Origin: an uncultured Actinomycetes bacterium
GTDB lineage: Bacteria > Actinomycetota > Actinomycetes > Streptosporangiales > Streptosporangiaceae
Direction of reading: 5' to 3'
DNA: 64,000 nucleotides
Assembly (NCBI GenBank): GCA_963770535.1
Contig: CAVYPZ010000002.1
Location: 11,641-75,640 of the forward strand
Part shown: one piece after another, positions 1,476 to 21,180 of the stretch
How the letters are laid out: every line of letters begins with the position of its first letter
Numbering within the stretch: position 1 is the first letter of the stretch
Notes under the pieces: generated by a model
What the model saw: only the letters and a program-made list of their open reading frames with translations
Told to the model about the DNA's origin: nothing
The model's database searches: none
Program-made: the position numbers and the translations under genes

Positions 1476-1486
1476 GCCAGGCTGCC

Positions 1487-1718
1487 GTGCCATTAGCGTG
1501 CCATTAACCAGGGTGACGAGAGGTCAACCAGAGTCATTCGGGACCGCCAGGGACGCCTGGTCAGCGCTCCTGGCAGCGGTAACCGCTGCGCTTCCCAAGC
1601 TGATAGTGCGAGTTCGATTCTCGTCACCCGCTCTCATCGTGAAGGCCCAGGCCAGGGACGGTATCCCGAACCTGGGCCTTGATCGTTCCGGGATCATTGT
1701 TGATCTCTCGTGCCCGCG
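1487..1718 (+). repeat. att relic A: tandem arm motifs + P arm + tRNA-Gly(CCC) 3' half + truncated P' arm
   Basis: Arm motifs GTGCCATTAGC (1487-1497) and GTGCCATTAAC (1498-1508). Core CTTCCCAAGCTGATAGTGCGAGTTCGATTCTCGTCACCCGCTC at 1591-1633 corresponds to anticodon loop CCC, T-arm GCGAG/TTCGATT/CTCGT, acceptor CACCCGC and discriminator T. Hairpin AGGCCCAGG..CCTGGGCCT at 1643-1679. Homologous to units at 4404, 6681, 13718 and 15258. Confidence 0.75.
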
Positions 1719-1760
1719 TCGGCCTCACTGGGCTAGTAGACGTTCACCTACCCACAAAGT

Positions 1761-2867
1761 GTGGAGGCTGGTCCATGGCGGTCCCTGGACGGGTGGACCA
1801 GCATGGACGGCATGAGCACCCTCCTAGAGGTCCTGCCGCCGCGTCTGCGTGCCACGCGCTGGGCCTCCCTGTTTCCTGTTGTCATGCTGGTGAGCACCTT
1901 GTACTGGGGTGTTCGCCCGTGGACGCTGGCCGGTGTTGCCGCAGCTTTTGCCCTAACGATTCTGGTTCCGCCCCTGGCCGCGGACCTGCTGGCGGTGGCG
2001 CTGATCGGGTTCGCATGTTGTGCTTTCGCCCTGGCCCTGCGGGGCGGCATCACGGCCCCCGGCTCGGCCACGACGGCTGGTTACCCGTTCCATGAGCTAC
2101 TGTTCACTCGCAGCATGCCGAACATGCTCGACCTGGCAGCGGGCCTGGTGATGTTGGCCTTCGGGGTGTGGCTGGTGCCGCGCACGATCGGCCTGCGTTC
2201 CGGGCTGGCCAGGCGCAACACGGAACTGGTTAGCCGGGTGCGGCGGCTGACCGCGACCCGGGTGGACGCCGTGGGCACTGCCTCGGCTGAGCTGCGGCGG
2301 GTCGAACGGGACCTGCACGATGGCGCCCAGGCTCGGCTGATCGCGCTGGGCATCTCCCTGCGAGCCACCGAGGGACTGATCAAGACCGACCCGGACGCTG
2401 CGGTGGCCCTGGTCGCCGCGGCGCGGGAGAACTCCGCCCGGGCGCTGGCCGAGCTGCGTGGCCTGGTGGCCGGGATTAACCCGCCGGTGCTGGCCGAGCG
2501 TGGCCTCGGCGACGCCCTACGAGCGCTCGCGCTCGATACCCCGGTGGCCACCACGGCTGACATCGACCTGCCGCGCCGCCTCCCGGCGCCAGTGGAGGCG
2601 GCAGCATACTTCGCGGTGGCTGAGGCGATCGCCAACGCCGCCAAGCATTCGGGTGCGCGCAGCGTGCACATCCGGGCGGCGCATTCGGCTGGAGTACTAC
2701 GGATCGAGGTCAGCGACGACGGCACCGGCGGCGCTGATCCGGCGCGAGGTACTGGGCTGCGCGGCGTGGAGCGCAGGCTCGGAACGTTTGACGGCGTGCT
2801 GGCGATCAGCAGCCCGCTGGGCGGGCCGACGATCGTGGCCATCGAGGTGCCGTGCGCGTCGTCATAG
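1761..2867 (+). CDS. sensor histidine kinase (HisKA_3 / NarL-partner type)
   Basis: N-terminal hydrophobic helices, H-box ERDLHDGAQARLIALG, and a C-terminal HATPase region (..AEAIANAAKHSGA.., DDGTGGAD, GTGLRGVERRL). Overlaps the downstream regulator by 16 nt. The start may instead be the internal ATG near 1812. Confidence 0.85.
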   Translation: MEAGPWRSLDGWTSMDGMSTLLEVLPPRLRATRWASLFPVVMLVSTLYWGVRPWTLAGVAAAFALTILVPPLAADLLAVALIGFACCAFALALRGGITAPGSATTAGYPFHELLFTRSMPNMLDLAAGLVMLAFGVWLVPRTIGLRSGLARRNTELVSRVRRLTATRVDAVGTASAELRRVERDLHDGAQARLIALGISLRATEGLIKTDPDAAVALVAAARENSARALAELRGLVAGINPPVLAERGLGDALRALALDTPVATTADIDLPRRLPAPVEAAAYFAVAEAIANAAKHSGARSVHIRAAHSAGVLRIEVSDDGTGGADPARGTGLRGVERRLGTFDGVLAISSPLGGPTIVAIEVPCASS

Positions 2868-3496
2868 CCGAAGACCTCTTCCTGCTGCGGGAAGGCTTGG
2901 CCAGCCTGCTCAAGGAGCACGGCTTCGACGTCGCGGAAGCCGTCGGGGACGGGCCATCCCTGCTGCGGGCGCTGGTCAACCAGCGGCCCGACGTAGCGAT
3001 CGTGGACGTCCGGCTCCCTCCCGCTTACACCGACGAGGGCCTGCGAGCCGCGCTGGAAGCCCGCCGCCAGGTGCCGGGACTGCCGATCCTCATCCTGTCC
3101 ACCCACGTCGAGCGGCTGTACGCCCGTGAGCTGCTGGCCGACCGGGCAGGCGGGGTCGGCTACCTGCTTAAGGACCGGGTGTTCACCGACGAGCAGTTCA
3201 CCGATGCGCTGTGCACGGTGGCCCGCGGCGGCACGGTCATGGACCCGGAGGTCGTCGCCAAGCTGCTGGCCAGGCGCGCCAGCCAACAGCCGGTCGCCCG
3301 GCTCACCAGCCGGGAACGCGAGGTCCTCGCGCTGATGGCCGAGGGCCGGTCCAATAGCGCCATCGCACAGCGCCTGGTCGTGTCCGAGAAGGCAGTCAGC
3401 AAGCACTGCACGTCCATCTTCACCAAACTCGACCTCCCACCATCCGACGACGACAACCGCCGCGTGCTAGCCGTCCTTGCCTACCTGGACTCCTGA
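2852..3496 (+). CDS. response regulator, NarL/LuxR family
   Basis: Receiver domain (VVIAEDLFLLREG.., PDVAIVDVRLPP) plus LuxR HTH (LTSREREVLALMAEGRSNSAIAQRLVVSEKAVSKHCTSIFTKL). Confidence 0.9.
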   Translation: MRVVIAEDLFLLREGLASLLKEHGFDVAEAVGDGPSLLRALVNQRPDVAIVDVRLPPAYTDEGLRAALEARRQVPGLPILILSTHVERLYARELLADRAGGVGYLLKDRVFTDEQFTDALCTVARGGTVMDPEVVAKLLARRASQQPVARLTSREREVLALMAEGRSNSAIAQRLVVSEKAVSKHCTSIFTKLDLPPSDDDNRRVLAVLAYLDS

Positions 3497-3669
3497 CCGG
3501 TCCCAGCCTTTCACCGACGCCAACTCACGCTGAGATCATGCGATAAGGAAATTCTTCGCGTTAGCGCCCATGGCCGCGGCGGTTTGCCGGTGGGCAGTCC
3601 GGCAGAGGTCGCCGCGTACGCCGCATCCAGCCCGGAACCGCCCAGCTCCCGGCCATGATCACCGTGCGA

Positions 3670-4077
3670 TTAACTGGCCTGGATGATCAAATTAAGCCCG
3701 CCATGTTCGGCGAAGTCCTTGAAGTCCTTGGTGTTGAGGGTCGCGAGCGGCAGGCCATAGGCTAGGGCGCATGCCGCGATCCAGGTGTCGTTGGCTGGCC
3801 TGGGCCGTCCCCGCTGGATCGCGTCCGCGGAGATCCGTCCCCAGGTCCGGGCAACGTCCTCACTGTAGGGAAGGACGATCACGCCGCCGAGCCAGCTCTC
3901 TAACGCGTCGCGATTGCGCCGTCCCCACTGCCGCAGCTCGGCCCACTGAGTCAGCTCCCCGAGCGTGACGAAGGTAATGCACGGTTGCTTGCCGATGAGA
4001 CGAGTTAACACAGGTGACGGGAGCCGACGCTTCAGGCTGAGCGAGGAGACGTCGGTGTCAAGGATTACCCTTTCCAT
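3670..4077 (-). CDS. vapC: PIN-domain ribonuclease toxin (VapC family)
   Basis: MERVILDTDVSS.., ..TLGELTQW.., ..NDTWIAACALAYGLPLATLNTKDF. 135 aa, 5 nt downstream of a small acidic ORF. Confidence 0.85.
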   Translation of the reverse strand: MERVILDTDVSSLSLKRRLPSPVLTRLIGKQPCITFVTLGELTQWAELRQWGRRNRDALESWLGGVIVLPYSEDVARTWGRISADAIQRGRPRPANDTWIAACALAYGLPLATLNTKDFKDFAEHGGLNLIIQAS

Positions 4078-4082
4078 GCGGA

Positions 4083-4283
4083 TCAGGCGAGATCGGCGTG
4101 ACGCATCTCGGCTACATGAGCGAGGAAGGCATCCAGCTCCTCGTCGGTGTCGAAGATGCCGTCATGAGCGAGATCGTCGGCAGACTGGATGGGGCGTATG
4201 CCCTTGCGCCGCGCCTGTTCATCCAGCGACTCGGTGCCGTGACCGGATGGCACGGCTAGGTCGTCCGCCCTGTCCGTCGTCAC
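4083..4283 (-). CDS. vapB: putative antitoxin of VapC (small acidic protein)
   Basis: GTG at 4283 is preceded by GGAGG. Peptide: VTTDRADDLAVPSGHGTESLDEQARRKGIRPIQSADDLAHDGIFDTDEELDAFLAHVAEMRHADLA. The track ORF (to 4427) runs upstream into the att repeat, so the shorter start is preferred. Confidence 0.6.
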   Translation of the reverse strand: MTTDRADDLAVPSGHGTESLDEQARRKGIRPIQSADDLAHDGIFDTDEELDAFLAHVAEMRHADLA

Positions 4284-4403
4284 TGTCACCTCCGGTGCCG
4301 GTCCATCCAGTATCGCATCTTGCCGGATGCCATGGCAGCAGTGGGCTACGTAGCAGTGCCAGCCGGTGATCTTCGCTGCCAGGGCGAGCGCGGGTTCTGG
4401 GAA

Positions 4404-4645
4404 GATCACCGTGCAATTAGCGTGCAATTAGCCAGGGTAACGAGGAGCCAGCCACGGGTACTGACGGTGCTCGGTCGTGGCTGGTCAGCGGTGCGAACAG
4501 CGTGGATCGGTGGGATTCCCAAGCTGATAGTGCGAGTTCGATTCTCGTCACCCGCTCCAGGTACGTTCTTGCGGGTCAGCGCCCGTATCCGAGTGTGGCC
4601 CGTTTCCCTCTGCTGGACAGTTGTTGATCTTTCGTGCCATAAGCC
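4404..4645 (+). repeat. att relic B: complete attP-like unit (tandem arm motifs, P arm, tRNA-Gly 3' half, P' arm motif)
   Basis: GTGCAATTAGC twice in tandem (4411-4421, 4422-4432). Core ATTCCCAAGCTGATAGTGCGAGTTCGATTCTCGTCACCCGCTCCA at about 4515-4559. P' motif CGTGCCATAAG at 4633-4643. The integrase remnant reads into the core from the right. Confidence 0.8.
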
Positions 4646-5110
4646 TGCGGGCGCGAGCGTGCTCGCCTCGCCGTCGTCGCTCTCGTCGCCGCCCTGCTCG
4701 GTCCGGACGTGTGAGTCGATCGCGCTCGTGATGGCCTGGTCGGCGCCGCGCGCCTCGTGCTGGTAGATCATGGCGGCGCGTTCGCTGTCGTGGCCCATTC
4801 GCGCCATGACATCCCTCAGGCCCGCGCCGCTGGACGCGGCGAACGTGTTGCCCGTATGCCGCAGATCGTGGAATGCAGACCTTCGGCACCGATCGACCGC
4901 ACCGCGTGGGGCCAGGCGGACATCTTGTTGAAGTCGCCACGCCGCGGGCCGCCCATCGCTGCGGGGAACGCCAGGGCTCCCGGCTCGGCCCGCGTGCCGT
5001 AGACCTCGGGGGATGTGACCAGCCCATCGGTAGGCACCGCGGCAAGTCTCCTCGGAGGAGATGGTCTCGACAGTTGCCTATACGGGCGCAGGTCGGGGAG
5101 GTATCACCCG
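4560..5110 (-). pseudogene. tyrosine recombinase/integrase, C-terminal remnant with frameshifts
   Basis: Pieces in two or three minus-strand frames. They read ..EPGALAFPAAMGGPRRGDFNKMSAWPHAVRSIGAEGLH / FHDLRHTGNTFAASSGAGLRDVMARMGHDSERAAMIYQHEARGADQAI (box II with HxxR and the catalytic Y) / ..LMARKINNCPAEGNGPHSD..ERTWSG*. The N-terminal roughly 250 aa of a normal integrase is missing. Confidence 0.8.
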
Positions 5111-5187
5111 CCGCCACGCGGATCGGCCTTGGCGGTGTCACCGGCCGGATCATTCGGCTGGTAACACCGCCGGTAAATGGGGTCCCC

Positions 5188-5544
5188 TTAGTTCTCCGCC
5201 TCGGCCTCGAGTTCCTCCTCCTCGAGTTCAGCTTCGGCTAGGGCGATCACGATCCCTAGTCCCTCGGCGATGTTCGCCGTCGCTGAGACGATGCGGGCTG
5301 TGCCCACGATGGGTGCCACCGCGACGAGAACATCTTCTACGTCATCGACGGTGATGCCTGAGTCTGCCGCCGGTATGGCGTTGAGCGCGTAGGAAGCGGC
5401 GGATGCGTCTAGCGCGACTAGGGCGGCGATCCGGGCGATCATGAGCTCGCGGGAGCCTAGGTCGCTGTTATCCAGCGACGTGGCGGTCATCACCAGGAGC
5501 GTGTCGCTGACGGGTGTTTCGTTTTCTGTTTCGTTTTCGGACAT
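5188..5544 (-). CDS. small acidic protein, possibly carboxymuconolactone decarboxylase (AhpD-like) fold
   Basis: 118 aa. The core ..LGSRELMIARIAALVALDASAASYALNAIPAADSGITVDDVEDVLVAVAPIVGTARIV.. resembles CMD-family helices. No CxxC motif, acidic tails. Family assignment is from memory only. Confidence 0.5.
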   Translation of the reverse strand: MSENETENETPVSDTLLVMTATSLDNSDLGSRELMIARIAALVALDASAASYALNAIPAADSGITVDDVEDVLVAVAPIVGTARIVSATANIAEGLGIVIALAEAELEEEELEAEAEN

Positions 5545-5903
5545 GGCGGTTCTCCTTTTGAAAGTTCGAATCTTGCAACCCTGTCAATCAGGCGGCCTTG
5601 CCTCACGCTACTCCGGCCAGGTGCGCCAACTGCCGGCGGCCCAACCTCGCAGAGGCAGCCCCCGACCTTGGCGACCTCGCCGGTGCCGCCGGCCCCCCGC
5701 GCGGCCCTGAGGAGCAGAGCAGGCATCCACCGGCAAGGCCGTGACCAACTGTTGGTCACGGCAAACCTGCAGTACGCCGCAAGTGAATTGGGCTGCCAAG
5801 CCAGGGGCATCTCGGCCACGGGATGTGCGCGGGATGACCGGTGATCATCAGACTTAACCAGACCGCGTTCGGAAGTCCCGGCCATCTTGTCGATACTTGT
5901 CTG

Positions 5904-6674
5904 ATGACTCGTCAGCATCGCTGGGTGGAGGAGGACGTGCCACTTGCGGGCGGGCGCATGACCAGCGGAATCGTGCGCCGTGGTGACCGGCTGCTGCGTC
6001 CGATGGGGCCGTGGTCGCCTGCCGTGCACGAGTATCTGCGCCATCTGGAGACAGCTGGGTTCGAGGGCTCGCCCCAGGTACTCGGCATCGAGGGCGCCCG
6101 GGAGGTGCTCACCTTCATCGACGGGGACGTCGCGGTGGACCTGCAGTGGGAGCCCGGGCATGGGCACCGGCTCCCTCCGTATGCCCGGACCGACCGTGCC
6201 CTGCGCGCCGTGGCGCACCTGCTGCGCCAACTACACTCGGCGGCTTCCGGGTTCCAGCCCGCGATCACCAGCTACCGCTTCCGCCCGCGTCCTCCCCGGG
6301 CCGGGGAGATCATCTCCCATGGCGACCTTGGTCCGTGGAACACCGTCTACCGTGACGGGATACCCGTAGCGTTCATCGACTGGGACAGCGCCGGGCCGGT
6401 CAGTCCGCTGGACGATCTTGCCAATGCGGCGTGGACCTTCGTGCCTCTGGCTTCATCCAGGCAGCTGATCGAAGCAGGATTCGACCCGCTCCCTGACCTG
6501 CCCGCCCGGCTGTGCCTATTCGTTGAGGCCTACGGCCTGACCGACCGTAAGGCCATCTTGCCTGCGCTGGAACGCAGCATGATCGGAGCAGCGGGCCGAC
6601 CAACGAACGCCGTGGACGCCGCCTCGCTGCAATGGCTGCGGGGCGTATCGACGAAGTTCGCTGGCGCACTGTAA
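5904..6674 (+). CDS. phosphotransferase (APH/choline-kinase-like) family protein
   Basis: Catalytic loop ISHGDLGPWNTV and metal site AFIDWDSAGP. The ATG at 5904 (MTRQHRW..) is preferred over the track start at 5841. Confidence 0.75.
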   Translation: MTRQHRWVEEDVPLAGGRMTSGIVRRGDRLLRPMGPWSPAVHEYLRHLETAGFEGSPQVLGIEGAREVLTFIDGDVAVDLQWEPGHGHRLPPYARTDRALRAVAHLLRQLHSAASGFQPAITSYRFRPRPPRAGEIISHGDLGPWNTVYRDGIPVAFIDWDSAGPVSPLDDLANAAWTFVPLASSRQLIEAGFDPLPDLPARLCLFVEAYGLTDRKAILPALERSMIGAAGRPTNAVDAASLQWLRGVSTKFAGAL

Positions 6675-6680
6675 GCCCTC

Positions 6681-6758
6681 GTGCCATTAGCCAGGGTGAC
6701 AAGGGGTCAACCAGGGGCACTCTGGACCAGCGGGGACGCTAGGTCAGCGCCCCTGGCA
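6681..6758 (+). repeat. att relic C: arm motif + P arm only, fused by deletion to the middle of an integrase gene
   Basis: GTGCCATTAGCCAGGGTGACAAGGGGTCAACCAGG..GGTCAGCGCCCCTGGCA aligns with units A and D. The tRNA core and P' arm are absent. Confidence 0.7.
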
Positions 6759-7033
6759 CCTGGGCGAGGGCCTGTCCGCCGGGCTGGCCCGGTGGCGGGC
6801 GTTCTTGGGTCCGGTGAAGACCAGGGCGTATTCGCCGGGAGCCGTGAAGTCCTCCAGGTGCGACAAGACCTCCGGGAGCGGGGCAACCGGTATGGACACG
6901 ATCTGGCGGCCTGCCAGCGACTTCGGCGGGCCAGTGACGAGTGACCCGTCCGTCAGTTCCACCACAGATTCCTGAATGCAGACCGTGCCGGAGGCGAGGT
7001 CAATGTGGCGGCGTCGCAGGGCCGCCAGTCCAG
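6759..7033 (-). pseudogene. tyrosine integrase, central fragment
   Basis: Peptide ..LRRRHIDLASGTVCIQESVVELTDGSLVTGPPKSLAGRQIVSIPVAPLPEVLSHLEDFTAPGEYALVFTGPKNA matches the region just before the catalytic domain of phage-type integrases. An in-frame stop lies upstream and the C-terminus is deleted. Confidence 0.75.
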
Positions 7034-7188
7034 GCTACAGAAGACGGCCGGCGGATCAGGCCGTCATCCACAGTGGTATTCAGGAATGCTGGGCGTTCGA
7101 GTCCGACTGAATGCGCGATGTGAGGCCACGACTCGGTCCCTATCATGAGATAGGCGCCAGGATGCAAGCAATAACGATCCTATACCGG

Positions 7189-7422
7189 CTAGCGACTGGA
7201 AAAGGCCAATCTTATGCGCTCACGCCAACGCGCATCCTGCCGAGAACGTATTTGACAACGGGTTATAATATCATGCCGGGCGGCACGCAGTTCAACCCAT
7301 TGTTCATGCTCTGTCTCTGCGGCATTTTCAAAATGAAAACTTTCGCCTTCTTTTAGGTATGTGGACACCCAAGCGTCTGCCTCGGTGAAGACAGAATTGA
7401 AGCGGTCTATCGCCTGCTTCAC
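7189..7422 (-). CDS. hypothetical small protein in a low-GC patch
   Basis: GTG start. Its AT-rich third positions are atypical for this genome. Same strand as, and downstream of, the 7478-8518 gene. No recognisable family. Confidence 0.3.
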   Translation of the reverse strand: MKQAIDRFNSVFTEADAWVSTYLKEGESFHFENAAETEHEQWVELRAARHDIITRCQIRSRQDARWRERIRLAFSSR

Positions 7423-7477
7423 TTGAGTTTCGCAGTTTCTGGGTTGCGAGGCTGGTCGGTGCTGTGCACGCCGATGG

Positions 7478-8518
7478 TCAGTGCCCGGTGAATGCCTGCT
7501 GGGCCGCCCAGAAGGCAGCCTTGGGTCTCCATGGCATGTCGGGGTAGCGGGTGCCCGGATTGCTGGTGATTGCCACGAGGCCGAATGAGGCCATGTCGAG
7601 GTCTTCGGCTGGTATGCCGGGCCGGTGCGGGAGGGCGTAGCCGGCGAAGGTGAACCAGAATGCGTCGTCGATGCTTTCTGCGGCGAAGATGTCCCATGTC
7701 TGGGTCAGGTAGCGGGCCTGCTCCTGTTCGTCACGCCGGATTCCGGGCCGTATGCGCGGCGGGGTCTGCGTGGTGTCCAGCGCCAGGAAGCCGGCCGGGC
7801 CGCGGTCAGCGGCCCCGGCGTAGGTGCAGCATCCGAACTCGGTGACCGATACGGGCTTGCCCCAGCGGCGGTAGGCGTGGAGCACCTGGCGGAAGGTGGC
7901 GGCGTTGCCGGCGTCGCGGTAGGCGTTGACGGATACGCGGTCGTAGCGGCTCCAGTCAACGTCCTCCCACAGGCCTGCTGCGTAGGTGATCGGCCCCGTG
8001 AACTCCCGGCGGGCCGCTGCGGTGATGCGGCTGTGGGCGGCGTCTGCGCGGTCGTTTGCCTGCTGGAGGACGTCGGGCGGTGCCGAGCCCAGGAGCGGCA
8101 CGCGGTCGAAGTAGGTATCACCGGGCAGGAAGCCGGCCACGTGAAGCGTGAACTCGCAGCCGAGCACGAGAACCACGCTGACCTTGCCGCGGCGGAGTTC
8201 CTCAGCGCGGGCCGCTGCCGCACGCAGGTAGCCGGCGAGCCCGTCGGCGTCCAGGTCGCAGGGAAACGGCGAGAACCAGACCGTCAGGCCCGCGGCATGG
8301 GCGGCCTCGGCCGCCGCGGTGAGCCGGTCCAGGTCGTCGCCGGTGACGCGGACCGCATCCGCGCCCAGGTCGCCGGCGATGACCGTCATCTCGCGCCGGG
8401 CAAGGTCAGCGTCGAAGGCCGGGCGGGTCTGTATTCCCCCGATCTCCATGCCCGTGTCATACCCGATGCCCCTTGCCGGGCCGCACTGCGCCGTGGAGCG
8501 TTCATTCCTGGACTCCAT
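7478..8518 (-). CDS. TIM-barrel glycoside-hydrolase-like protein (clan GH-A-like), family uncertain
   Basis: 346 aa with an alternating beta/alpha pattern. Candidate catalytic acids in ..LVLGCEFTLH.. and ..PVSVTEFGCCTY... Divergent from a TetR gene. Confidence 0.5.
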   Translation of the reverse strand: MESRNERSTAQCGPARGIGYDTGMEIGGIQTRPAFDADLARREMTVIAGDLGADAVRVTGDDLDRLTAAAEAAHAAGLTVWFSPFPCDLDADGLAGYLRAAAARAEELRRGKVSVVLVLGCEFTLHVAGFLPGDTYFDRVPLLGSAPPDVLQQANDRADAAHSRITAAARREFTGPITYAAGLWEDVDWSRYDRVSVNAYRDAGNAATFRQVLHAYRRWGKPVSVTEFGCCTYAGAADRGPAGFLALDTTQTPPRIRPGIRRDEQEQARYLTQTWDIFAAESIDDAFWFTFAGYALPHRPGIPAEDLDMASFGLVAITSNPGTRYPDMPWRPKAAFWAAQQAFTGH

Positions 8519-8535
8519 TGTCCAGTAATATCACT

Positions 8536-8557
8536 TACGAGACTTGCGAGTCTAGTA
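8536..8557. promoter_or_regulatory. imperfect palindrome, candidate TetR operator
   Basis: TACGAGACTTGCGAGTCTAGTA has 9 of 11 symmetric pairs. It lies in the 46-nt divergent gap between 7478-8518 (-) and the TetR gene (+). Confidence 0.4.
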
Positions 8558-8564
8558 TTAAGGC

Positions 8565-14123: not shown

Positions 14124-14390
14124 TCAGTACCGCCGGTTTTCGCGGCGTTCCTTGCGGCGTCTGTGACGACGCATCACGCCCAACCCCAACCACACCAATG
14201 CCCCGAATACCGCCATCACGATGGTGTAGAGCCACAACGGCCAGATAAAGCTCCAGAAGAGGAAGTGGAACCTGACGTTCTCCCGGTTCTGGATGACGAA
14301 GATGAGCAGGACCGCCAGGCCGGAGAGCGAGGCGATCGCCCCGCCGCCGAGTCGCCGACCCGCTTGTTTCGCTTCAACCTGCTGGCTCAT
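14124..14390 (-). CDS. LapA/DUF1049-family small membrane protein
   Basis: MSQQVEAKQAGRRLGGGAIASLSGLAVLLIFVIQNRENVRFHFLFWSFIWPLWLYTIVMAVFGALVWLGLGVMRRHRRRKERRENRRY. The ATG at 14390 is preceded by a G-rich RBS. The longer track ORF is unlikely. Confidence 0.6.
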   Translation of the reverse strand: MSQQVEAKQAGRRLGGGAIASLSGLAVLLIFVIQNRENVRFHFLFWSFIWPLWLYTIVMAVFGALVWLGLGVMRRHRRRKERRENRRY

Positions 14391-14699
14391 CACACCCCCC
14401 ACTACACGTGACATCCACAGGGCGCGTCCAACCCGGTGCTCGCGAACCCCCGCTGTTTCGCGCCCCTCGCCATGTGCTCGGGCGGGACGTAGCCGCTGGC
14501 ACGTTTCATGCTCGTGCCGCTCGCCCATTAAACGACAGGGCAGAAAGTTCCGGCCGGGCGGTCGAGATGCTCTGGGGTCGCCTTCAATGCCTGGGCGTCC
14601 CGTGCTCTCATCTGGATCCCTCATGACCGTCTCACAGACTGGGGGACAGCAACGGACAAGGGCGTGCGCATCGGACACCTGCTCAATATGACTTGGAAA

Positions 14700-14945
14700 A
14701 CGGGTCACCCGCACAGGCCGAACACGCTGCGCCCATGCTGCGGACCGGCTGGGTGGTGGTTCGGCGGACAGTGCGGATGCTGTCAGTGGCCAGGTCGATC
14801 GTGAAGGTGCCCGCAGAGACGTAGACGGTCACGAATCCGGCGGGCGTGGACCCGCCCCAGGGCGATGTTCTGGCCGGTAACCATGACGATGCCGGTGTTG
14901 CTGGCGACCCGCTGGACGGTGACCGGCTCGGCTGAGCACTGTGGT
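14700..14945 (-). pseudogene. C-terminal scrap of an rve-type (IS481/IS3-like) transposase
   Basis: ..PVTVQRVASNTGIVMVTGQNIALGRVHA / GFVTVYVSAGTFTIDLATDSIRTVRRTTTQPVRSMG.. in two frames. This is a typical C-terminal tail of these transposases. Confidence 0.5.
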
Positions 14946-15257
14946 CGCGGCCCGGCTGGGCTGGCGCCCCGCAGGCGGCTGGCCTGGCGCCCGCAGGCGG
15001 CGGCCCTGGTCTCAGGTCAGCGGGCTGGGCCGGGTCCACAGCAGCTCGTGCACGCGGGCCACTCCGGTTGACGAGACATCAGACGGCGAGCTGCTGCTAC
15101 AGAGATTGAATTGTCAGGATTTCTCCCAGTTGATGCCTGCTCGGCGTGCCGTGATGACGCTGACTGGTTGTGGCAGGTAGCGCACTTCCTCCGCCCGGGC
15201 CAGGTCAACCTCGCAGAACCCACGTGCGGGACAGCCGGGACCGTCCTGCTCTCGAGC

Positions 15258-15410
15258 ATGATCACCGTGCAATCAGCCACGACAACGAGGGGTCAGTCAC
15301 AGCTACTGTCGCCGTCCGGTCCTGGCTGGTCAGCGGCCGTAGCGGTGCGAGTTCGATCCACCTCACCCGCTCCACAAGTCGAAGCCGCAGGTGAGGGCCG
15401 CAAGGCTGAG
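15258..15410 (+). repeat. att relic E: arm motif + P arm + diverged T-arm/acceptor end + P' start
   Basis: CATGATCACCGTGCAATCAGCC.., ..CTGGCTGGTCAGCGGCCGTAGCGGTGCGAGTTCGATCCACCTCACCCGCTCCA (ends 15374), then ..GCAGGTGAGGGCCGCAAGGCTGAGCC, which is homologous to the P' arm of unit D. Confidence 0.65.
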
Positions 15411-15469
15411 CCAGCGCGTGGGCTACACGCTGGAGCGGGAGAGGGGAGCCTGGTGGCCATGAGACGCGC

Positions 15470-15510
15470 GAGTGCCCCGGCCCAATGAGGTTACCGGGGC
15501 ACTCTTATTG
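15470..15510 (+). terminator. strong hairpin followed by CTTATT, terminator-like
   Basis: AGTGCCCCGG (15470-15479) pairs perfectly with CCGGGGCACT (15493-15502) across a 13-nt loop. The trailing sequence is CTTATTGCG. No adjacent intact gene is assigned to it. Confidence 0.35.
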
Positions 15511-16085
15511 CGCGCCAAGGTTCGGGCTCTGGCTTCATGGGCTCTCGCCTGTCCTTGCGCATCGACGGCGGCTATGCGTATGGCGACCAGCGGTGCCACC
15601 GATCCAAAAGATGGCGGACAACGTGGGGCCTGTGCGGCCTGTGCGGGTGAAGGGCCATCATGACCTCCCTTCCTTCAGTGCAGACGTACACCTCCGGACG
15701 TTCTGGCATTAGGGGCCTTGGACCCGTTTCCAGCGTGATATAGAGCACAGTCACCCTTACGCGGAGCTGGCCGTGCTGATCGGGGGGGAATCACGATCAC
15801 GGCCGCAGCCAGGCGGGGGCAGGTCGCGGGCATCCAGCCGGGACGGCAAGGTCTTGACCCGGTAGCCGTCCAGCAGCCCGTGCACCTGGTCCACGCCAGC
15901 CTGCAGCGGGATGGTGCGCCCGGCCAGCGCGGGTCCCAGCCAGATCTGCTACCCGGCCACAGCTACAGGACACCGGCCGGGATCGAACTGATAAGGATGA
16001 GGTCGATGTGTCAGGCTCATCTAGGCCACCACCCAAACACCCAGGTCACACGCTTAAGCCAACGTTACTGCGGCGACGCGCTGCC

Positions 16086-16433
16086 TCAGTCGGCCCGGCC
16101 GTAGACCGTAAAGTCGATCTCGATGCCAGCGAGCGGGGGGTTTTCCGGGCTGGCCAGGAACGTCACCACCTCACCCGGCACCTCGTACACCCTGCTGACC
16201 GATCCCCCCGGCGGGACGGTAAAGGAGTCAAGAGCCGTGATGAAATTGGCGTTGATCGTGTTCGGCTGGTCAACGTGCGAAACACCGATGACCACCGGCG
16301 CCGGGCTGTTCACCCAATTGTCAACCGATAGCCGGATGGTGCGGTAGGCAGACAAGTCCAGCTGGGCGAGTTCTGACTCGTCCTCGTCAACTGTCATCTG
16401 ATTGCCGTCAGCCAGGAGCTTCGTGTTAGGCAT
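16086..16433 (-). CDS. hypothetical protein (beta-rich, 115 aa)
   Basis: Clean ORF with a protein-like sequence (..YRTIRLSVDNWVNSPAPVVIGVSHVDQPNTINANFITALDSFTVPPGGSVSRVYEVPGEVVTFLA..). No family recognised. Confidence 0.5.
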   Translation of the reverse strand: MPNTKLLADGNQMTVDEDESELAQLDLSAYRTIRLSVDNWVNSPAPVVIGVSHVDQPNTINANFITALDSFTVPPGGSVSRVYEVPGEVVTFLASPENPPLAGIEIDFTVYGRAD

Positions 16434-16696
16434 ACGCCGACCGTAGCGGATAGATCATCGACTCTGCCCACCCCTGGCAGCAATGCGGCGGCGGGTACGC
16501 GCCTGCTCACGGACCGGGCGGCTGCGGCGGGACCGCGGCGCCTCTTACGTGCGGGCCTCGCGCGCAGATTTGCTAACAACGGACCCCTGGGCAACGCCAG
16601 ATAGAACTGGCTCAGGCGACCGCACGCGTCCCCCGCGAGCGGGCCTGTCCGACCACTACGGACTGGCCTGGACTACCGTTCTGTTGCGGGAGGTTC

Positions 16697-17509
16697 TCAC
16701 GCCGCCTTCAGTTCCGCACGTTCGTGCCCGCGGTGCAGGAACGCGGTGATCACCGGGCCGACCTCGTGCGCGCTGTCCAGCAGAACGAGATGCCCTCCGC
16801 CTTTGACCGTGTGCAGCCGCGCCGACGGGATCAGCCTCGCCATCGTCCGGTGATTCACATGCGGTGTCACCGGGTCATCGTCACCGCACAGGACCAGCGT
16901 CTCGTGCCGGATCGACGGCAGCTGGAGCAGGCTGGTCCACCCGGCGAGGGCGGACAGGCGGAACGCCGCAGCCCGGAAGCTGCCCGGCTTGGACATCTTG
17001 AGGTCCGCGGCCAGTTCCGGCTCGGTCCTCATCCTCCCGCCGAACATGGCACCTGCGGTCTTGGCGAGCCGGTCGGGCTGGTAGCCGCGCGGATGCATCA
17101 TCCGCAGCAGCGCCATGGGCCGGCCGGGCAGGGCGGGGCCGCCGAACGAGGTGGACACCAGGATCAGCCTGTCTACCCGCTCGGGGTGGGACATGGCCAT
17201 CTGCTGGGCGACCGCGCCGCCGAACGACACGCCGAGGACGTGGGCGGAGTCAATGCCCAGATGATCGAGGATGCCCACGCCGATGTCCGCCAGGCCCCGC
17301 ATCGTCATCGGGGATGACGGCACCTGGGAGGAGCCGATGCCCGGGGCGTCGTAGGTGATCACCTGGCAGCCGTGAAGGTGCTCCACCAGAGACTCCCAGT
17401 GGTGCATCTCGCTGAAGATGCCGGAGTTCAGGAGGATCGGGACGCCTTCGCCCGCCGACTGGGCGTGAATGCGCAGGCCTCGGATGGTCATCTGGTAGTC
17501 GCGGATCAT
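16697..17509 (-). CDS. alpha/beta hydrolase (PhaZ-like layout)
   Basis: Nucleophile elbow GVSFGG, an oxyanion-region PILLNSG, and a C-terminal ..GGHLVLLD histidine. The overall order resembles poly(3-hydroxyalkanoate) depolymerase-type hydrolases. Confidence 0.85.
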   Translation of the reverse strand: MIRDYQMTIRGLRIHAQSAGEGVPILLNSGIFSEMHHWESLVEHLHGCQVITYDAPGIGSSQVPSSPMTMRGLADIGVGILDHLGIDSAHVLGVSFGGAVAQQMAMSHPERVDRLILVSTSFGGPALPGRPMALLRMMHPRGYQPDRLAKTAGAMFGGRMRTEPELAADLKMSKPGSFRAAAFRLSALAGWTSLLQLPSIRHETLVLCGDDDPVTPHVNHRTMARLIPSARLHTVKGGGHLVLLDSAHEVGPVITAFLHRGHERAELKAA

Positions 17510-18039
17510 CGGGGCCTCATTACCCTCGTCGCTGCTTGCAATTGTGAGCGCTGTGCTCGGCCGTTACGCGTGATGTGCCACCTGTACGCGTGATGTGCCA
17601 CCTGCAGGAGAACAAAGGGCGCGCGCCGGGTGAGGCGTAATCAAGTACCGCCTGAGCCGTCCCGCTCGACCACCCGCGAACGCCCGGGGGCCAGCATGGT
17701 GAGGCCCCGTCGCACACCGCTACCGCTTTCCTGATGACCTCGCCGTCGTCGGTCGCCCCGGGTGCGACGGTGATGTGGCACCCTGGCCGCCGGAACTGGT
17801 TGGCCGCCGTCCGAGCTGATCCTCGGACACGTAAACCACACTACGCTAGTCACCTAAAACTAGCAATGAAATTCAAGAATAAGAATTCGAGCTTTTCCTT
17901 AACAGGCCGTAACGTCCCACCAGTCATTCCGGGCCACTCGCCTGCCTAATGACAACCCCCGGTAGGGGTTGCCTGGCGGGTTCCGGCGCCGGCGGAGCAA
18001 GGCGCCCTGATGGCTGCGAAGCACCAATCACCAAATGCT

Positions 18040-18150
18040 GCCGCTAGCTGGGGACGAACCCGCTCCACGCACGAAAGCCCAGGCCAGGGCAGCGATCCTG
18101 GCCTGCGCTTTGATCGTTCCGGGCATTTCCGGGTCCTCTTACGTGCAAGT
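18040..18150 (+). repeat. att relic H: last ~12 nt of the tRNA core + P' arm
   Basis: GACGAACCCGCTCCA then CGCACGAAAGCCCAGGCCAGGGCAGCGATCCTGGCCTGCGCTTTGATCGTTCCGGGCATTTCC. This aligns with unit A, ..CACCCGCTC TCATCGTGAAGGCCCAGGCCAGGGACGG..GGGCCTTGATCGTTCCGGGATC. Confidence 0.65.
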
Positions 18151-18197
18151 GTCTATCCGCTCGACAGTTGTAGTGTCTAGCCGCTAGATATATTCGG

Positions 18198-18422
18198 GTG
18201 AAGGCTCGCGAGGTGAACCGGAAGATCGAGCGGCTCGGGGGTGTCATGGTCCGCCAGGTCGGATCGCACCGACGTTACGTGGTGGCCCTCACTGATGACA
18301 CTGGGGCGGAAGAGAAGGTGGCGGCCACGGTCCCGCAGCGGGCGGGCGACCTCCCGGCCGGGACCCTGCGCGCCATCGCGCGCGATCTAGAGGCGGCATT
18401 AGGAAAGGGATGGCTGCGGTGA
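18198..18422 (+). CDS. hicA: HicA-family mRNA interferase toxin
   Basis: 74 aa. ..KIERLGGVMVRQVGSHRRYV.. is the HicA GSH motif. Toxin-first order and a 13-nt overlap with hicB. Confidence 0.8.
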   Translation: MKAREVNRKIERLGGVMVRQVGSHRRYVVALTDDTGAEEKVAATVPQRAGDLPAGTLRAIARDLEAALGKGWLR

Positions 18423-18820
18423 GCGCCGATACGTATCGCGTAATCGTCACCCGTGAAGACGGCCGCTGGCTCGCTGACGTTCCTTCCCTGGAAGGTGCCC
18501 ACACCTGCGCCCGCAGCCTGCCAACCCTGGACCAGTCGGTGAGAGAGGTTGTGGTCCTGGCCGCCGACCTGCCCGACGAGGCAATGCCCAGTCTCGTACT
18601 GGACTACGAGTACCACACTGGTGATGCCAGCCTCGACGCCACCGCGCAGGAGGTTCGCCAGCTACGCCGCGAGGCCGACGAGCTCGCTGCCGCGGCTGCC
18701 ACCCGCACCGGCCGGGCCGCCTCCGAGCTGGTTGCCAGGGGATTGTCAGTCCGCGATGTCGCCGCCCTGCTCGGCATCAGCCCCCAGCGCGTCTCCCAGC
18801 TCACGGCCCGGGCAAGCTGA
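18410..18820 (+). CDS. hicB: HicB-family antitoxin with C-terminal HTH
   Basis: The N-terminal YRVIVTREDGRWLADVPSLEGAHTCARSL.. is HicB-like. C-terminal ..GLSVRDVAALLGISPQRVSQL is an HTH. Confidence 0.75.
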   Translation: MAAVSADTYRVIVTREDGRWLADVPSLEGAHTCARSLPTLDQSVREVVVLAADLPDEAMPSLVLDYEYHTGDASLDATAQEVRQLRREADELAAAAATRTGRAASELVARGLSVRDVAALLGISPQRVSQLTARAS

Positions 18821-18847
18821 GCTGCCCAACTGCTCCGAACCGCACCA

Positions 18848-18920
18848 AAATCGCCGTGCAATTAGCCCCAGTAACCAGGGACCGGTCAGGGGGCTGGCCA
18901 CCACAGCGCCGCGGCGCTAG
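18848..18920 (+). repeat. att relic F: arm motif + truncated P arm
   Basis: AATCGCCGTGCAATTAGCCCCAGTAACCAGGGACCGGTCAGGGGGCTGG. It shares the ATC(A/G)CCGTGCAATTAGCC start with units B and E. Confidence 0.6.
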
Positions 18921-18953
18921 GCTCCGCTACATCGTGCTGGTGGGGAGGCGACG

Positions 18954-19424
18954 GTGACAGCGGAGCCGGAAGACCAGATGGCGATAGCCGCTGGCCGCAG
19001 CCACCTCAGGGCATCTCATGCTGACCGCGAGCACGTAATCGACATGCTGAAGGCCGCCTTTGTGCATGGCCGGGTTACCAAAGACGAGTTTGATGCGCGG
19101 GTCGGCCAGGCATTCGCGTCGCGGACCTATGCGCAGCTGGCCGCAGTTACCGCCGACATCCCCGGCAGGCAGATCGCGGACCAGCCGCCGGGCAACCCGG
19201 CCCGCGCGCGGGGTCGGCTGACGATGAGCCATGCAGCCAAGGCCCGCCGATGTGTGGTCATTGCGCTGGCCATGATGACGGTGGCCACGTTCGCCCCCGA
19301 CGGTCCCGCGCTCCTCCTAATGGCGCCTCTGTGTCTGACGGCTTTGATGGTTGCCGCGGCCCAGATTCTCGCCTCCCAGCACGACAAGCGTTCCCGTGAT
19401 CAGCTAGCGGGGCCCAGCACCTAG
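18954..19424 (+). CDS. DUF1707 (SHOCT-like) domain membrane protein
   Basis: LRASHADREHVIDMLKAAFVHGRVTKDEFDARVGQAFASRTYAQLAAVTADIP is the DUF1707 signature. C-terminal TM helices follow. The GTG start is preceded by GGGGAGG. Confidence 0.75.
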   Translation: MTAEPEDQMAIAAGRSHLRASHADREHVIDMLKAAFVHGRVTKDEFDARVGQAFASRTYAQLAAVTADIPGRQIADQPPGNPARARGRLTMSHAAKARRCVVIALAMMTVATFAPDGPALLLMAPLCLTALMVAAAQILASQHDKRSRDQLAGPST

Positions 19425-19691
19425 CGCAGGGCGGTGAGCGTCCCAGCGCCAGCGCCTGCCGCCGAACCGAACAGCTCCCACAGATCAGCCGCACCCCCCG
19501 ACACAGCCGAATCTGGGTGGCCCGAGCCCCCGGAGGCTGCGTGTCCGGGTCACCAAAGGCCCCGGCTCCCGGGGGCGGGCCGCCGAATCGGCGTCAGGAC
19601 ACATCCCTGGCGGCGGCGTCCAGCGCCACCTGCGCCGCGAAGCATCTGGCAGGATGTCGGCAGCTACCTGAACGGCCTGGGGAGGAGACCT

Positions 19692-20135
19692 GTGCCTGTC
19701 CGCTTTCAGCTGGTCATCGACTGTGCCGACCCGGACCGGCTGGCCCGGTTCTGGGCTGCCGCGCTCGGTTATGAGCTCGCGCCGGTCCCGGCTGGATTCG
19801 CTACCTGGAACGACTTCTACCGCGAGCTGGGGGTGCCCGAGGGGGAGCTGGTCGACGGGGCGGACAGGATCAGCGACCCGGAGGGCCGCGGGCCGGGCAT
19901 CTGGTTCCATGTCGTCCCGGAGGCCAAGGCGGTCAAGAACCGGCTGCACCTCGACATCCACGCTAGTGGCGAGCGGACGGACCCGATCGAGACTCGCAGG
20001 AAGCGAGTCGACGCGGAGGCGGACCGGCTGGCCGGCCTCGGCGCCACCATCACTGGCGCATTGCCTGAGGAAGGGCTGGACCACTACGCGGTCGGGATGA
20101 AGGACCCGGAAGGCAACGAGTTCGATATCAACTGA
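19692..20135 (+). CDS. VOC/glyoxalase-like domain protein
   Basis: GTG at 19692 follows GGAGGAG. ..FQLVIDCADPDRLARFWAAALGYEL.., ..GIWFHVVPEAKAVKNRLHLDIH.., ..YAVGMKDPEGNEFDI. Confidence 0.75.
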   Translation: MPVRFQLVIDCADPDRLARFWAAALGYELAPVPAGFATWNDFYRELGVPEGELVDGADRISDPEGRGPGIWFHVVPEAKAVKNRLHLDIHASGERTDPIETRRKRVDAEADRLAGLGATITGALPEEGLDHYAVGMKDPEGNEFDIN

Positions 20136-20529
20136 CCGTGGAGCAGCGCAAGCGTCGTAGCCGCCTGGCACGCGCAGAAACCGGAGGCTCGCCTGCAGAT
20201 GCGCCTCCTCGGGCTGCCCATTGCCGGGCGCCCGTGCTTCGCCGGGGAACACACCCAGAGCGCGCCTCGTTTACCCCGACGGTGCCTTCTGCAGCGGTAT
20301 CCGCTAAGCCAAGCGCCTCCTCCGGTCACCAAGCGTGCAGTCCCCAATTGGGATCAGCTGAGCTGGTGTCACCCCAGGTAAAATGAGGGCCATTTGCCGG
20401 GCGCGCCATAACGTCCGCCGGTGCGGGCCTGGAGCCTGCGCCACATTCTCGAGCTTAACGGCCTCAAGCGCCAGGATGCCGCTGACGCAGAGCAGCAGGG
20501 CGCCCACGGGCCGACGCTACATCGCGGCT

Positions 20530-21093
20530 TCACGCACGCAACTCGCCAGGCAGCAGGCTGTAGATCACACTGTCACGGCGCGCCTCCTTGAAGGGGATGT
20601 GGGAACGAAGGAGGCCCTCACGGGCAAACCCGCAGCGTTCGGCCACATGCTGTGATGCCTCGTTATCGGGGCTGCAGGTCAGTTCCAGCCGGGGCAGCCC
20701 CAGCTCAGCGAACGCCCACCGGGCAAGCAGGCGGACGGCATGCGCGGCGGCACAATGGCCCCGGGCGGCGGGCCCGAGCCAGTAACCAACCGATGCGCAG
20801 CCCTGGGCCTGGCGAACGTCGTACGGCGACTCACCGCCTAGCACCACGTCCTGGTCACCTGGTTCGGCCAGCGCGAAGTTCAGTTCCTCGCCCCGCAAAC
20901 GGGCTTTCTCTTGCTCAGCGAGGTAGCCCTGAGCGTCAGCCTCGGTAAACGGAGTAGTACGCGGCCACGAGAACCTCTGCACCACCGGATCGCTGAACCC
21001 AGCCAGCAGGCGCGGTACGTCGGCTTCACGCCAGGGACGCAGCAGCACCACTTCGCCGGCCAACGGCGGCACGGGAACCCAAAGCTCGGCCAT
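20530..21093 (-). CDS. GNAT N-acetyltransferase (RimJ/RimL-like)
   Basis: ..VVLLRPWREADVPRLLAGFSDP.., ..VGYWLGPAARGHCAAAHAVRLLARWAFAELGLPRLELTCSPDNEASQHVAERCGFAREGLLR.. Confidence 0.85.
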   Translation of the reverse strand: MAELWVPVPPLAGEVVLLRPWREADVPRLLAGFSDPVVQRFSWPRTTPFTEADAQGYLAEQEKARLRGEELNFALAEPGDQDVVLGGESPYDVRQAQGCASVGYWLGPAARGHCAAAHAVRLLARWAFAELGLPRLELTCSPDNEASQHVAERCGFAREGLLRSHIPFKEARRDSVIYSLLPGELRA

Positions 21094-21107
21094 GCCGAAA
21101 TGATCTC

Positions 21108-21180
21108 AGCTAGCCAGCCACGGGTCCTGGCGGTGCCCGGCCCCGGCTGGTCAGCGGCCGTAGCCGCATCGGGCGTGCCC
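21108..21180 (+). repeat. att relic G: inner P-arm fragment, right-most copy
   Basis: AGCCAGCCACGGGTCCTGGCGGTGCCCGGCCCCGGCTGGTCAGCGGCCGTAGCC aligns with unit B (AGCCAGCCACGGGTACTGACGGTGCTCGG..GGCTGGTCAGCGG) and unit E. It is followed by an AT-rich promoter-like stretch. Confidence 0.55.

Follow-up and report, generated by a model that had tools for sequence, protein, structure and literature searches.

In the 64-kb window analysed here, the whole stretch taken from contig CAVYPZ010000002.1 of an uncultured member of the Streptosporangiaceae, a unit resembling the attachment site of an integrative element occurs in nine co-oriented copies, all on the + strand and spread over positions 1466–21165, with short gene modules in between. 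The copies had first been listed from the letters of the DNA alone (the sequence-only reading), and a repeat search of positions 1–24000, MAFFT alignment and nhmmer recovered them at essentially the same positions. When the 11-mer GTGCMATTARC was searched for with at most one mismatch, nine matches appeared in the 64 kb, all nine on the + strand and spanning 1487–18866, as compared with an expectation of 1.38 from shuffled sequences, and none of 100 shuffles attained nine. A 30-nt segment of the T-arm and acceptor stem occurs three times in the window against none expected, and the recurrence of the unit is confirmed.

A complete unit is an attP-type junction of ~290 bp with arm-type repeats at both ends, and consists of a left arm (P) with tandem GTGCMATTARC motifs, a 45-nt core (O) and a right arm (P') formed by the 3'-terminal coding sequence of a tyrosine integrase gene. 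The core corresponds to positions ~30–76 of the tRNA-Gly(CCC) gene in close relatives, and in units A and B it is, from GCTTCCCAAGCTG through CACCCGCTC, identical to the genuine tRNA-Gly(CCC) of the closest relatives, L005 and L026 (position ~30 to 73/76; L numbers designate the loci and contigs used for comparison). ARAGORN detected no genuine tRNA gene in the 64-kb window, and the reading of the copies as att cores and not tRNA genes is supported. The anatomy proposed from the sequence alone stands, with the correction that complete att sites number three (A, B and D) and the other six copies are truncated. A tRNA-Val(aac) reported by ARAGORN at 4463–4559 was rejected as an artefact, since this forced 97-nt fold, which spans the P arm of unit B and its core, has no genuine 5' half, and automatic annotation of such arrays may list spurious tRNAs.

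Comparison of 57 units revealed that the T-stem of the core tracks the variant of the host tRNA, GCGAG/CTCGT or GCGGG/CCCGT, with an A-U pair becoming G-C. The core of unit A ends in CTCTCA and not in CTCCA (window 1626–1637), an ending shared with the tRNA-Gly gene of Streptosporangium fragile, which has no encoded CCA (L033 4270–4356). The variant accompanies one type of P' arm (CTCTCAyyGTGAAGGCCCAGG), which points to a crossover upstream of the discriminator base.

Directly upstream of unit A lies a vapBC-like pair on the + strand (874–1475) with VapB at 874–1044 and a PIN toxin at 1041–1475 (PIN E=1.1e-9). Unit A itself is a complete P-O-P' junction (1466–1720, +; nhmmer 187.7 bits) with the P arm at 1476–1581, including 11-mers at 1487–1508, the core at 1582–1635 and the P' arm at 1636–1720, and the vapBC module together with unit A shows 78.5% identity to L017 3598–5221. 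It is followed by a two-component system (1761–3496, +) made up of a histidine kinase (1761–2867) and a LuxR-type response regulator (2852–3496) with the Pfam families HisKA_3, HATPase_c, Response_reg and GerE. Copy I (3632–3674, +) comprises the left flank of a P arm and one 11-mer (GTGCGATTAAC) and adjoins the stop codon of vapC; it matches the left flank of unit E to 82%, and its counterpart in L035 is a junction between a P'-arm motif and vapC. The copy had been taken for a stand-alone motif and is best read as a deletion scar fusing a P-arm motif to a P'-arm motif.

The second vapBC pair is situated on the - strand (3670–4270; PIN toxin 3670–4077, PIN E=2.8e-8, antitoxin ~4083–4270), and the module with unit B is 82–85% identical to L038, L035 and L011. 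Unit B (4380–4645, +; nhmmer 164.2 bits) is complete, with 11-mers at 4411–4432, a core at 4515–4559 that is identical to the 3' part of the real tRNA-Gly and ends in CCA, and a P' arm at 4560–4645 in which the 11-mer GTGCCATAAGC is located at 4634–4644 (P' motif at +76). An independent read-level assembly from the same organism, the Logan contig L001 (run ERR11523672), shows 99.9% identity to window 3325–4433 and reaches from the end of the response regulator through scar I and vapBC into the first part of unit B, and the arrangement is therefore not an assembly artefact.

Beyond unit B lie an integrase pseudogene (4643–4986, -) that retains the C-terminal third of the catalytic domain (PF00589 positions 113–169, E=6.7e-8), a conserved hypothetical protein of 118 aa (5188–5544, -) that is frequent in metagenome-assembled genomes (MAGs) of Streptosporangiaceae, and an APH-family phosphotransferase (5841–6674, +; APH E=2.2e-10). 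Unit C (6679–6760, +) is a P arm only, covering positions 49–130 of the nhmmer profile, and is joined directly to the middle of a second integrase pseudogene (approximately 6760–7400, -; tblastn match 6804–7022), of which the central part is left (…LRRRHIDLASGTVCI…GPPKSLAGR…) with several frameshifts and no C-terminus. The module between units C and D is the longest (7478–13626, mixed strands) and was found by Pfam to contain a 346-aa open reading frame (ORF) with a weak GH113 match, a TetR regulator (8565–9281), a DDE_5 transposase of an insertion sequence (IS; 9340–10656, 438 aa) and unannotated ORFs; the IS may explain part of its length.

Unit D (13689–13935, +; nhmmer 131.5 bits) is a complete but mutated P-O-P' junction with a degenerate 11-mer (GGGTCATTAAC), a core at ~13808–13850 and a P' arm containing CGGCCATTACC, the P' motif being placed at +78 with two mismatches. 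A membrane protein with a LapA domain (14124–14714, -; LapA_dom E=8.3e-10) separates it from unit E (15237–15410, +), which is decayed in that the core has lost ~30 nt from its anticodon part and the T-stem is mutated, the P arm being kept. Unit E is the orthologue of an intact unit at L005 4083, and the sequence downstream of it (15345–15766) is 87% identical to L005 4215–4636 and 86% identical to L034. The alpha/beta hydrolase that follows (16697–17509, -; Abhydrolase_1 E=9e-31) shows 94% identity to L005 324–1148, where the orthologue lies directly after the real tRNA-Gly. In copy H (18058–18150, +) the final 10 nt of the core (ACCCGCTCCA) and the P' arm are left, whereas the deleted P arm and most of the core are retained in L005 at 1696–1856.

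The right end of the array contains a hicAB pair (18198–18820, +; HicA_toxin E=1.8e-9 and a helix-turn-helix antitoxin) with 87–91% identity to L005 6871–7519, unit F, a partial P arm (18847–18920, +) with one 11-mer at 18856–18866, and genes assigned by Pfam to a DUF1707 protein (18954–19424, +), a Glyoxalase_6/VOC protein (within 19434–20135, +) and a GNAT acetyltransferase (20530–21093, -). Unit G (21108–21165, +), the last recognisable unit, is the distal half of a P arm of the B/E type (…GGCTGGTCAGCGGCCGTAGC) with neither 11-mer nor core. The cargo listed in the sequence-only reading was confirmed by Pfam (PIN twice, HisKA_3/HATPase, Response_reg-GerE, APH, HicA, DUF1707, Glyoxalase_6 and GNAT), and the TetR regulator, the DDE_5 transposase, the LapA-domain protein and the alpha/beta hydrolase are additions to that list.

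The G+C content of the array is 65% as compared with 70–77% farther along the window. Directly after unit G there is an AT-rich segment of ~150 bp (21180–21330), and the G+C content is then 0.68 up to ~26 kb before reaching 0.70–0.77, for which reason the genes for enoyl-CoA hydratase, SfLAP and alkyl-sulfatase (21.3–25.6 kb) may still be acquired DNA. The 10-mer CTGGTCAGCG, allowing one mismatch, has 61 matches on both strands all over the 64 kb against 9.8 expected from dinucleotide shuffles, an excess that probably reflects codon or G+C bias and not anything connected with the array.

Exactly two integrase fragments were found in the window, in agreement with the two broken ones counted before. 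The translation of the first, at 4643–4986(-), reads HDLRHTGN…MGHDS…IYQHE and passes into a frameshifted tail, LMARKINN…, which crosses the P' arm and reaches its stop codon within the core of unit B. By tblastn the fragment is 73–77% identical to the integrase of L049. Since this minus-strand reading frame runs through it, the P' arm consists of coding sequence of the integrase, and the earlier suggestion that the right arm is the 3' tail of an integrase ORF is upheld also by the integrases of L002 and L049. Both fragments fall in a clade associated with integrative and conjugative elements of actinomycetes (AICEs).

In L002 an uninterrupted integrase of 464 aa (PF00589 together with SAM-like domains) and an HTH_17 excisionase adjoin a P-O-P' unit. 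From this full-length gene the integrase remains within the arrays range over frameshifted near-complete copies and pieces of 149, 117, 96, 80 and 35 aa down to nothing, although some of the breaks in nanopore-derived MAGs may be sequencing errors and not real decay; two frameshifted copies are found in Nonomuraea sp. JJY05, an isolate assembled from Illumina reads. When the two halves of the integrase were compared with the database, none of the 120 best relatives exceeded 257 aa for the C-terminal half or 292 aa for the N-terminal half, which indicates that relics far outnumber intact genes, and these short ORFs include proteins annotated in cultured Nonomuraea, Streptosporangium, Microtetraspora and Spongiactinospora. 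A programmed frameshift, or an integrase split at one recoding site, was ruled out by break points that vary between sequences and by the uninterrupted gene of L002. An internal segment of the integrase (…YRLRFQRHGEMRTSPEVYASRAEAERAL…) between the core-binding and catalytic domains, seen in L002 (~4.6–5.9 kb) and L049 (9208–10454), resembles the protein's own N-terminal arm-binding-like segment (…RYQIRYPGPDGRMRTGPETYERKSDADRAL…) and could be a duplicated DNA-binding module.

The chromosomal context was revealed by five related arrays (L005, L010, L022, L026 and L033), all headed by a complete tRNA-Gly(CCC) with dcd on the other side of the tRNA. In L049, retrieved via a database relative of a window integrase fragment, genes for a GntR regulator, RepSA (PF20199), a protein with an HTH_17 excisionase domain and the integrase converge on a real tRNA-Gly(CCC), and its P' arm carries GGGCCATTAGC twice, ~75 nt past the core and before the integrase stop, an architecture as in the window units. 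This part of L049 is probably the integration and replication end of a pSAM2-type AICE, the organisation of which has been reviewed (te Poele et al. 2008, PMC2440964). The far end of the element (attR) was not found in the 10 kb that extend from the integrase into the element. Units in L019, L011 and L030 are adjoined by remnants of RepSA and GntR. The modules of the window hold just the two integrase fragments and no set of Int, Xis and RepSA, and are therefore relics and not AICEs.

The distribution of the unit was examined by scanning one genome per species with the P-arm pattern GTGCMATTARCCAGGGTRAC, which gave 47 loci, taken as 8-kb blocks, in Nonomuraea, Streptosporangium, Microbispora, Microtetraspora, Planomonospora, Planotetraspora, Planobispora, Acrocarpospora, Sphaerisporangium and many soil MAGs. 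With a profile made from complete units, these blocks, the 1.1-kb read-assembly contig and the window gave 106 unit matches in 49 sources (the window, the 47 genome loci and the one metagenomic contig of the same organism). The array in the window is thus one instance of a feature of the whole family, spread over about ten genera of Streptosporangiaceae and related MAGs. Within each locus the units are always co-oriented, with up to seven in 8 kb (L005), and ~190 nt of the unit are strongly conserved in sequence between genera.

Among the 70 cores that could be scanned for a P' motif, namely those reaching their 3' end, 21 have the family-(i) 11-mer at a fixed distance of +73 to +76 nt past the core and two more have it at +88 and +91. 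At other junctions different 11-mers, GTGCCAGAWSC and GTGCCCGYTGC, occupy the same place in the P' arm, and the P and P' arms of a single junction can come from different arm-motif families. The 11-mers of arm type, GTGCCATTAGC, GTGCCAGATGC and GTGCCCGCTGC, are candidate arm sites of the integrases. The further families were seen at L003 7352–7557, L033 3360–3547, L020 515–712 and L012 6171–6359, as well as in P' arms at L015 3593, in L014 and L038 and at L045 6077. Two additional arm-motif families on one tRNA-Gly(CCC) core suggest that at least three integrase specificities may compete for one attB.

Several modules of the window are shared with relatives: a 161-aa ORF, vapBC and unit A with L017; the minus-strand vapBC and unit B with L038, L035, L011 and L041; unit E and the sequence downstream of it with L005 and L034; and the hydrolase up to copy H, as well as hicAB with unit F, with L005. 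When these were aligned, the identity was 0.75–0.96 over cargo, P arm and core and fell to 0.37–0.48 immediately past the core in three independent pairs, the values for unit A and L017 being 0.83 for the P arm, 0.91 for the core and 0.48 for P'. One block of vapBC, P arm and core is even attached to three different P' arms in three genomes. The nearest relative of a P arm was found in the same array for only three of 57 units, the P arms of one array are on average 0.73 identical as compared with 0.68 for those of different arrays or genomes, and units A, B and D of the window have their nearest P-arm relatives in other genomes (0.79–0.92 identity). The homology that stops after the core, the nearest relatives that lie elsewhere for 54 of the 57 units and the arrays of relatives headed by tRNA-Gly(CCC) all support the proposal in the sequence-only reading that the copies are P-O-P' junctions from tandem integration.

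On the left side of the modules no such uniform border is seen. The vapBC block has five left junctions, at which it is joined to an intact P' motif, to a P/P' scar, to a NUDIX-like gene (so labelled from reading the sequence and not by Pfam), to another gene and to a truncated core, and the left module boundaries are thus ragged end-points of deletions and not the precise edges of cassettes. In L017 (5053–5392) the P' 11-mer of one unit touches the P arm of the next, so that the spacing is ~245 bp and no cargo is left, which represents either an "empty" module or a deletion between directly repeated 11-mers. Units E, H and F are degraded in the window and intact in L005, and the order of modules also differs between these two. 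A Pfam survey of the cargo across loci gave PIN, PHD antitoxin, GNAT, methyltransferases, VOC, IS fragments and small unknown proteins; the GC3-based (third codon position G+C) gene picker that served this bulk survey, and this survey only, was wrong for some genes and placed, for instance, the two-component operon on the wrong strand.

With nearly all integrases of the arrays frameshifted or truncated and the left boundaries imprecise, accretion followed by decay is the best explanation, and we consider it very probable that the region has arisen by accretion and decay of integrative elements at tRNA-Gly(CCC). The array region would best be explained as lying distally in a hot spot of accretion whose chromosomal site is dcd–tRNA-Gly(CCC). 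In such a scheme, pSAM2-like AICEs, in which the 3' end of the tyrosine integrase gene overlaps attP and which encode an HTH_17 Xis and RepSA, would repeatedly enter the 3' half of the tRNA gene. The attP of each circular element would recombine with the tRNA or with an already existing core, giving stacks of the form B-O-P' … P-O-P' … P-O-B', and each integration would leave a junction in which the P arm of one element, the tRNA-derived 45-nt core and the P' arm of its neighbour are joined. The 11-mers, which mark the outer end of each arm, most likely serve as arm-type sites for the N-terminal domain of the integrase. These steps draw on what is known of lambda-type and AICE integration (PMC2440964, PMC3218068).

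Later deletions and frameshifts would strip the integrase, excisionase, replication and transfer genes, and the survivors would be those located at the P-arm end of each element and adjoining P arm and core, that is toxin-antitoxin (TA) pairs, small accessory enzymes and regulators. TA pairs may resist deletion and so be retained preferentially together with useful small genes, the outcome being an array with a cassette-like look. Scar I and the cargo-free fusion in L017 could both have formed by short-homology deletion between directly repeated 11-mers. Pairs of intact cores with suitable arms might be recombined by Int and Xis in trans to give a circle with a complete attP, and mobilisation of modules in trans is possible on these grounds. 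The more general claim that any two cores could excise each module does not hold here, as six of the nine copies are truncated and it would apply to few modules of the window.

Some observations fit less well with accretion and decay. The head of this particular array, and the tRNA-Gly gene predicted there, would lie outside the 64 kb. An FtsK/TraB-like transfer gene is not among the precomputed Pfam matches of the called genes of L049, so that the AICE label is based on RepSA, Xis, Int and GntR only. The modules appear as unit E, hydrolase, hicAB in the window and as tRNA, hydrolase … E … hicAB in L005, a difference for which deletion is insufficient and which demands rearrangement or independent gain. 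The spacing of units is tightly peaked with a median of 1.41 kb and 38 of 57 spacings within 0.67–1.9 kb, a signal that is in part a sampling bias from 8-kb blocks chosen by the P-arm pattern, and many P' arms are preserved exactly to the 11-mer with no integrase remnant beyond; random deletion alone is not an obvious source of either.

The regular spacing of the co-oriented units and the exact P' ends are what would be expected if dcd–tRNA-Gly(CCC) were instead a functional analogue of an integron, a working reservoir in which integrase-less ~290-bp attP modules (P', one or two genes, P) would be excised, reordered and re-inserted by the Int and Xis of an AICE in trans and exported as a family-wide pool of TA pairs and small enzymes. 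In its TA pairs, GNAT and VOC proteins, methyltransferases and small unknowns the cargo is like that of cassettes in chromosomal integrons, an intact Int and Xis share L002 with an array, and the module order of L005 departs from that of the window, with the hydrolase module in the slot next to the tRNA, the landing place of a re-integrated circle; the vapBC block with three P' arms would also agree with shuffling. We nevertheless find this unlikely in view of the six truncated units in the window, the many truncated ones elsewhere, the decay of E, H and F relative to the close relative L005 and the ragged left boundaries. Gene orientation relative to the unit is random (41 co-oriented and 42 opposite), the integrase, Rep and GntR remnants form a continuum, and no circular forms or free attP were found, IMG/VR being without a match. 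P-arm conservation is mixed: in one pair the P arm is somewhat better conserved than nearby third codon positions (0.83 vs 0.64–0.69), but in two other pairs it is no better conserved than intergenic DNA (0.75 vs 0.70–0.78). Membership in the integrons proper was ruled out, there being no IntI, no folded attC and no precise co-oriented cassettes.

Tyrosine integrases that overlap attP at the 3' end of a tRNA gene are no less typical of actinophages, and with no transfer gene identified in L049 and some modules consisting of an integrase and one or two genes only (L003), prophages or non-conjugative islands aimed at tRNA-Gly(CCC) could be thought of as the source of the units. This is rendered quite improbable by the RepSA, the KorSA-like GntR regulator and the HTH_17 Xis beside the L049 integrase and by the RepSA and GntR remnants at other units; moreover, phage structural genes were absent from every Pfam scan made, and the P-arm pattern had no match in 2.9 million IMG/VR contigs. 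That all copies are direct repeats at one locus might suggest in-place duplication of one attP segment, whether through unequal crossing-over or through replication slippage, with later divergence of the copies. The nearest-neighbour analysis of the P arms ruled out such local duplication, the identity within arrays barely exceeding that between genomes, and it is also at odds with the several arm-motif families per array and the unrelated cargo between copies, which makes it extremely unlikely. A structured tRNA-like RNA gene, or a self-propagating miniature repeat built on the tRNA 3' half, would account for the conservation of ~190 nt across genera, for the tRNA-like fold imposed on copy B by ARAGORN and for a GGGTG in the P arm that could pair with CACCC of the acceptor strand. 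However, RNAalifold on the 57 units gave the T-arm and one 4-bp helix only (-9 kcal/mol, covariation term -0.56), no Rfam family matched at the gathering score, the units are never dispersed but all lie downstream of tRNA-Gly(CCC) with one orientation, and the P' arm is integrase coding sequence. The idea of an RNA gene was therefore dropped and its probability, like that of a miniature repeat, is close to negligible.

Accretion and subsequent decay, the reading preferred here, is a mechanism already known (PMC9513070, PMC3218068, PMC2440964, PMC3146451), and the statement that such arrays are undescribed in actinobacteria was overstated. In Streptomyces, AICEs and defective AICEs are stacked at a tRNA-Arg hot spot with remnants flanked by direct repeats, for which the term accretion was used (Choufa et al. 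2022, PMC9513070), and tandem AICEs occur in Frankia and S. avermitilis, those of Frankia having been shown experimentally to excise singly or jointly (Ghinet et al. 2011, PMC3218068). The likeness extends to elements with a tyrosine integrase, RepSA and Xis in the 3' end of a tRNA gene, to the stacking of elements of the same specificity between direct repeats and to defective elements and gene-poor remnants that stay flanked by the repeats. Those cases comprise one to three elements and an occasional remnant, each of several kb to tens of kb, while here at least nine junctions are found within 20 kb and up to seven within 8 kb in a relative, with modules of mostly 1–1.5 kb and nearly all integrases dead. 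Further differences are the target, here tRNA-Gly(CCC), the recurrence in about ten genera of Streptosporangiaceae and the full P and P' arms, and not the core repeat alone, that can be recognised at the junctions. What is new is thus the degree, the target and the spread, that is at least nine junctions in 20 kb with mostly 1–1.5-kb modules, tRNA-Gly(CCC) as the target, three arm families per core and recurrence throughout the family. No published account of this dcd–tRNA-Gly(CCC) array locus was found in a search with most subscription journals outside its coverage.

A comparable arrangement is known from Dehalococcoides, where tandem islands at ssrA are bounded by repeats of its 3' end, more than a dozen per region, and some islands without an integration module have been discussed as cis-mobilisable via accretion, the content being strain-specific (McMurdie et al. 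2011, PMC3146451). Common to both are the tandem islands after one tRNA-like gene, each bounded by the repeat of its 3' end. In contrast to the arrays described here, the Dehalococcoides islands depend on a serine recombinase (the CcrB-like DsiB), have a 20-bp repeat with no arm sites and are larger with reductive dehalogenase operons, and both the phylum and the type of element differ. Cis-mobilisable elements (CIMEs) are att-flanked segments without integrase or transfer genes of their own, formed by deletion of an integrated element and in principle excisable with or by a functional neighbour; CIMEs and a model of accretion and mobilisation were reportedly put forward by Pavlovic et al. in 2004 (cited in PMC3218068) for ICESt1 and ICESt3 of Streptococcus thermophilus, with mobilisation shown experimentally. 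Modules between complete units, such as that from A to B (which includes scar I) and several in L005 and L015, are likewise att-flanked and without recombination or transfer genes of their own, while most modules of the window have at least one truncated bounding site. Unlike these modules, which are known from sequence alone, CIMEs are single elements beside one integrative and conjugative element, belong to unrelated element families and have had their mobilisation demonstrated.

With integrons, and with the integrase-less attC clusters (CALINs), the arrays share co-oriented sites ~1 kb apart, a cargo of TA, acetyltransferase and glyoxalase-fold genes and an integrase that is absent or degraded nearby; a 2016 survey found all Actinobacteria genomes to be without complete integrons (Cury et al. 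2016, PMC4889954). The differences are that the arrays have no IntI, attI or folded single-strand attC but a ~290-bp double-arm attP conserved in sequence and not in structure, that the genes are not co-oriented with the sites (41:42) and that the module boundaries are imprecise. The resemblance to integrons is one of outcome and not of family membership.

For annotation, the 11-mers, the P-arm consensus and the dcd–tRNA-Gly locus provide markers of islands in the Streptosporangiaceae, whose genomes are mined for antibiotics, and relics in such arrays would explain many of the "orphan" half-integrase ORFs in the databases. Array-bearing strains are available in culture, among them Nonomuraea sp. 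JJY05, Streptosporangium fragile JCM 6242, Planomonospora alba JCM 9373, Microbispora catharanthi CR1-09 and Microtetraspora sp. NBRC 13810. If modules were still moved in trans, the locus would represent an integron-like shuffling of genes with a different recombinase and a different type of site. If the arrays are debris, they would be a clear family-wide case of the domestication of conjugative elements, in which the mobility genes have been lost and TA pairs and small accessory genes kept, and the insertion site keeps its history as a readable stack of junctions.

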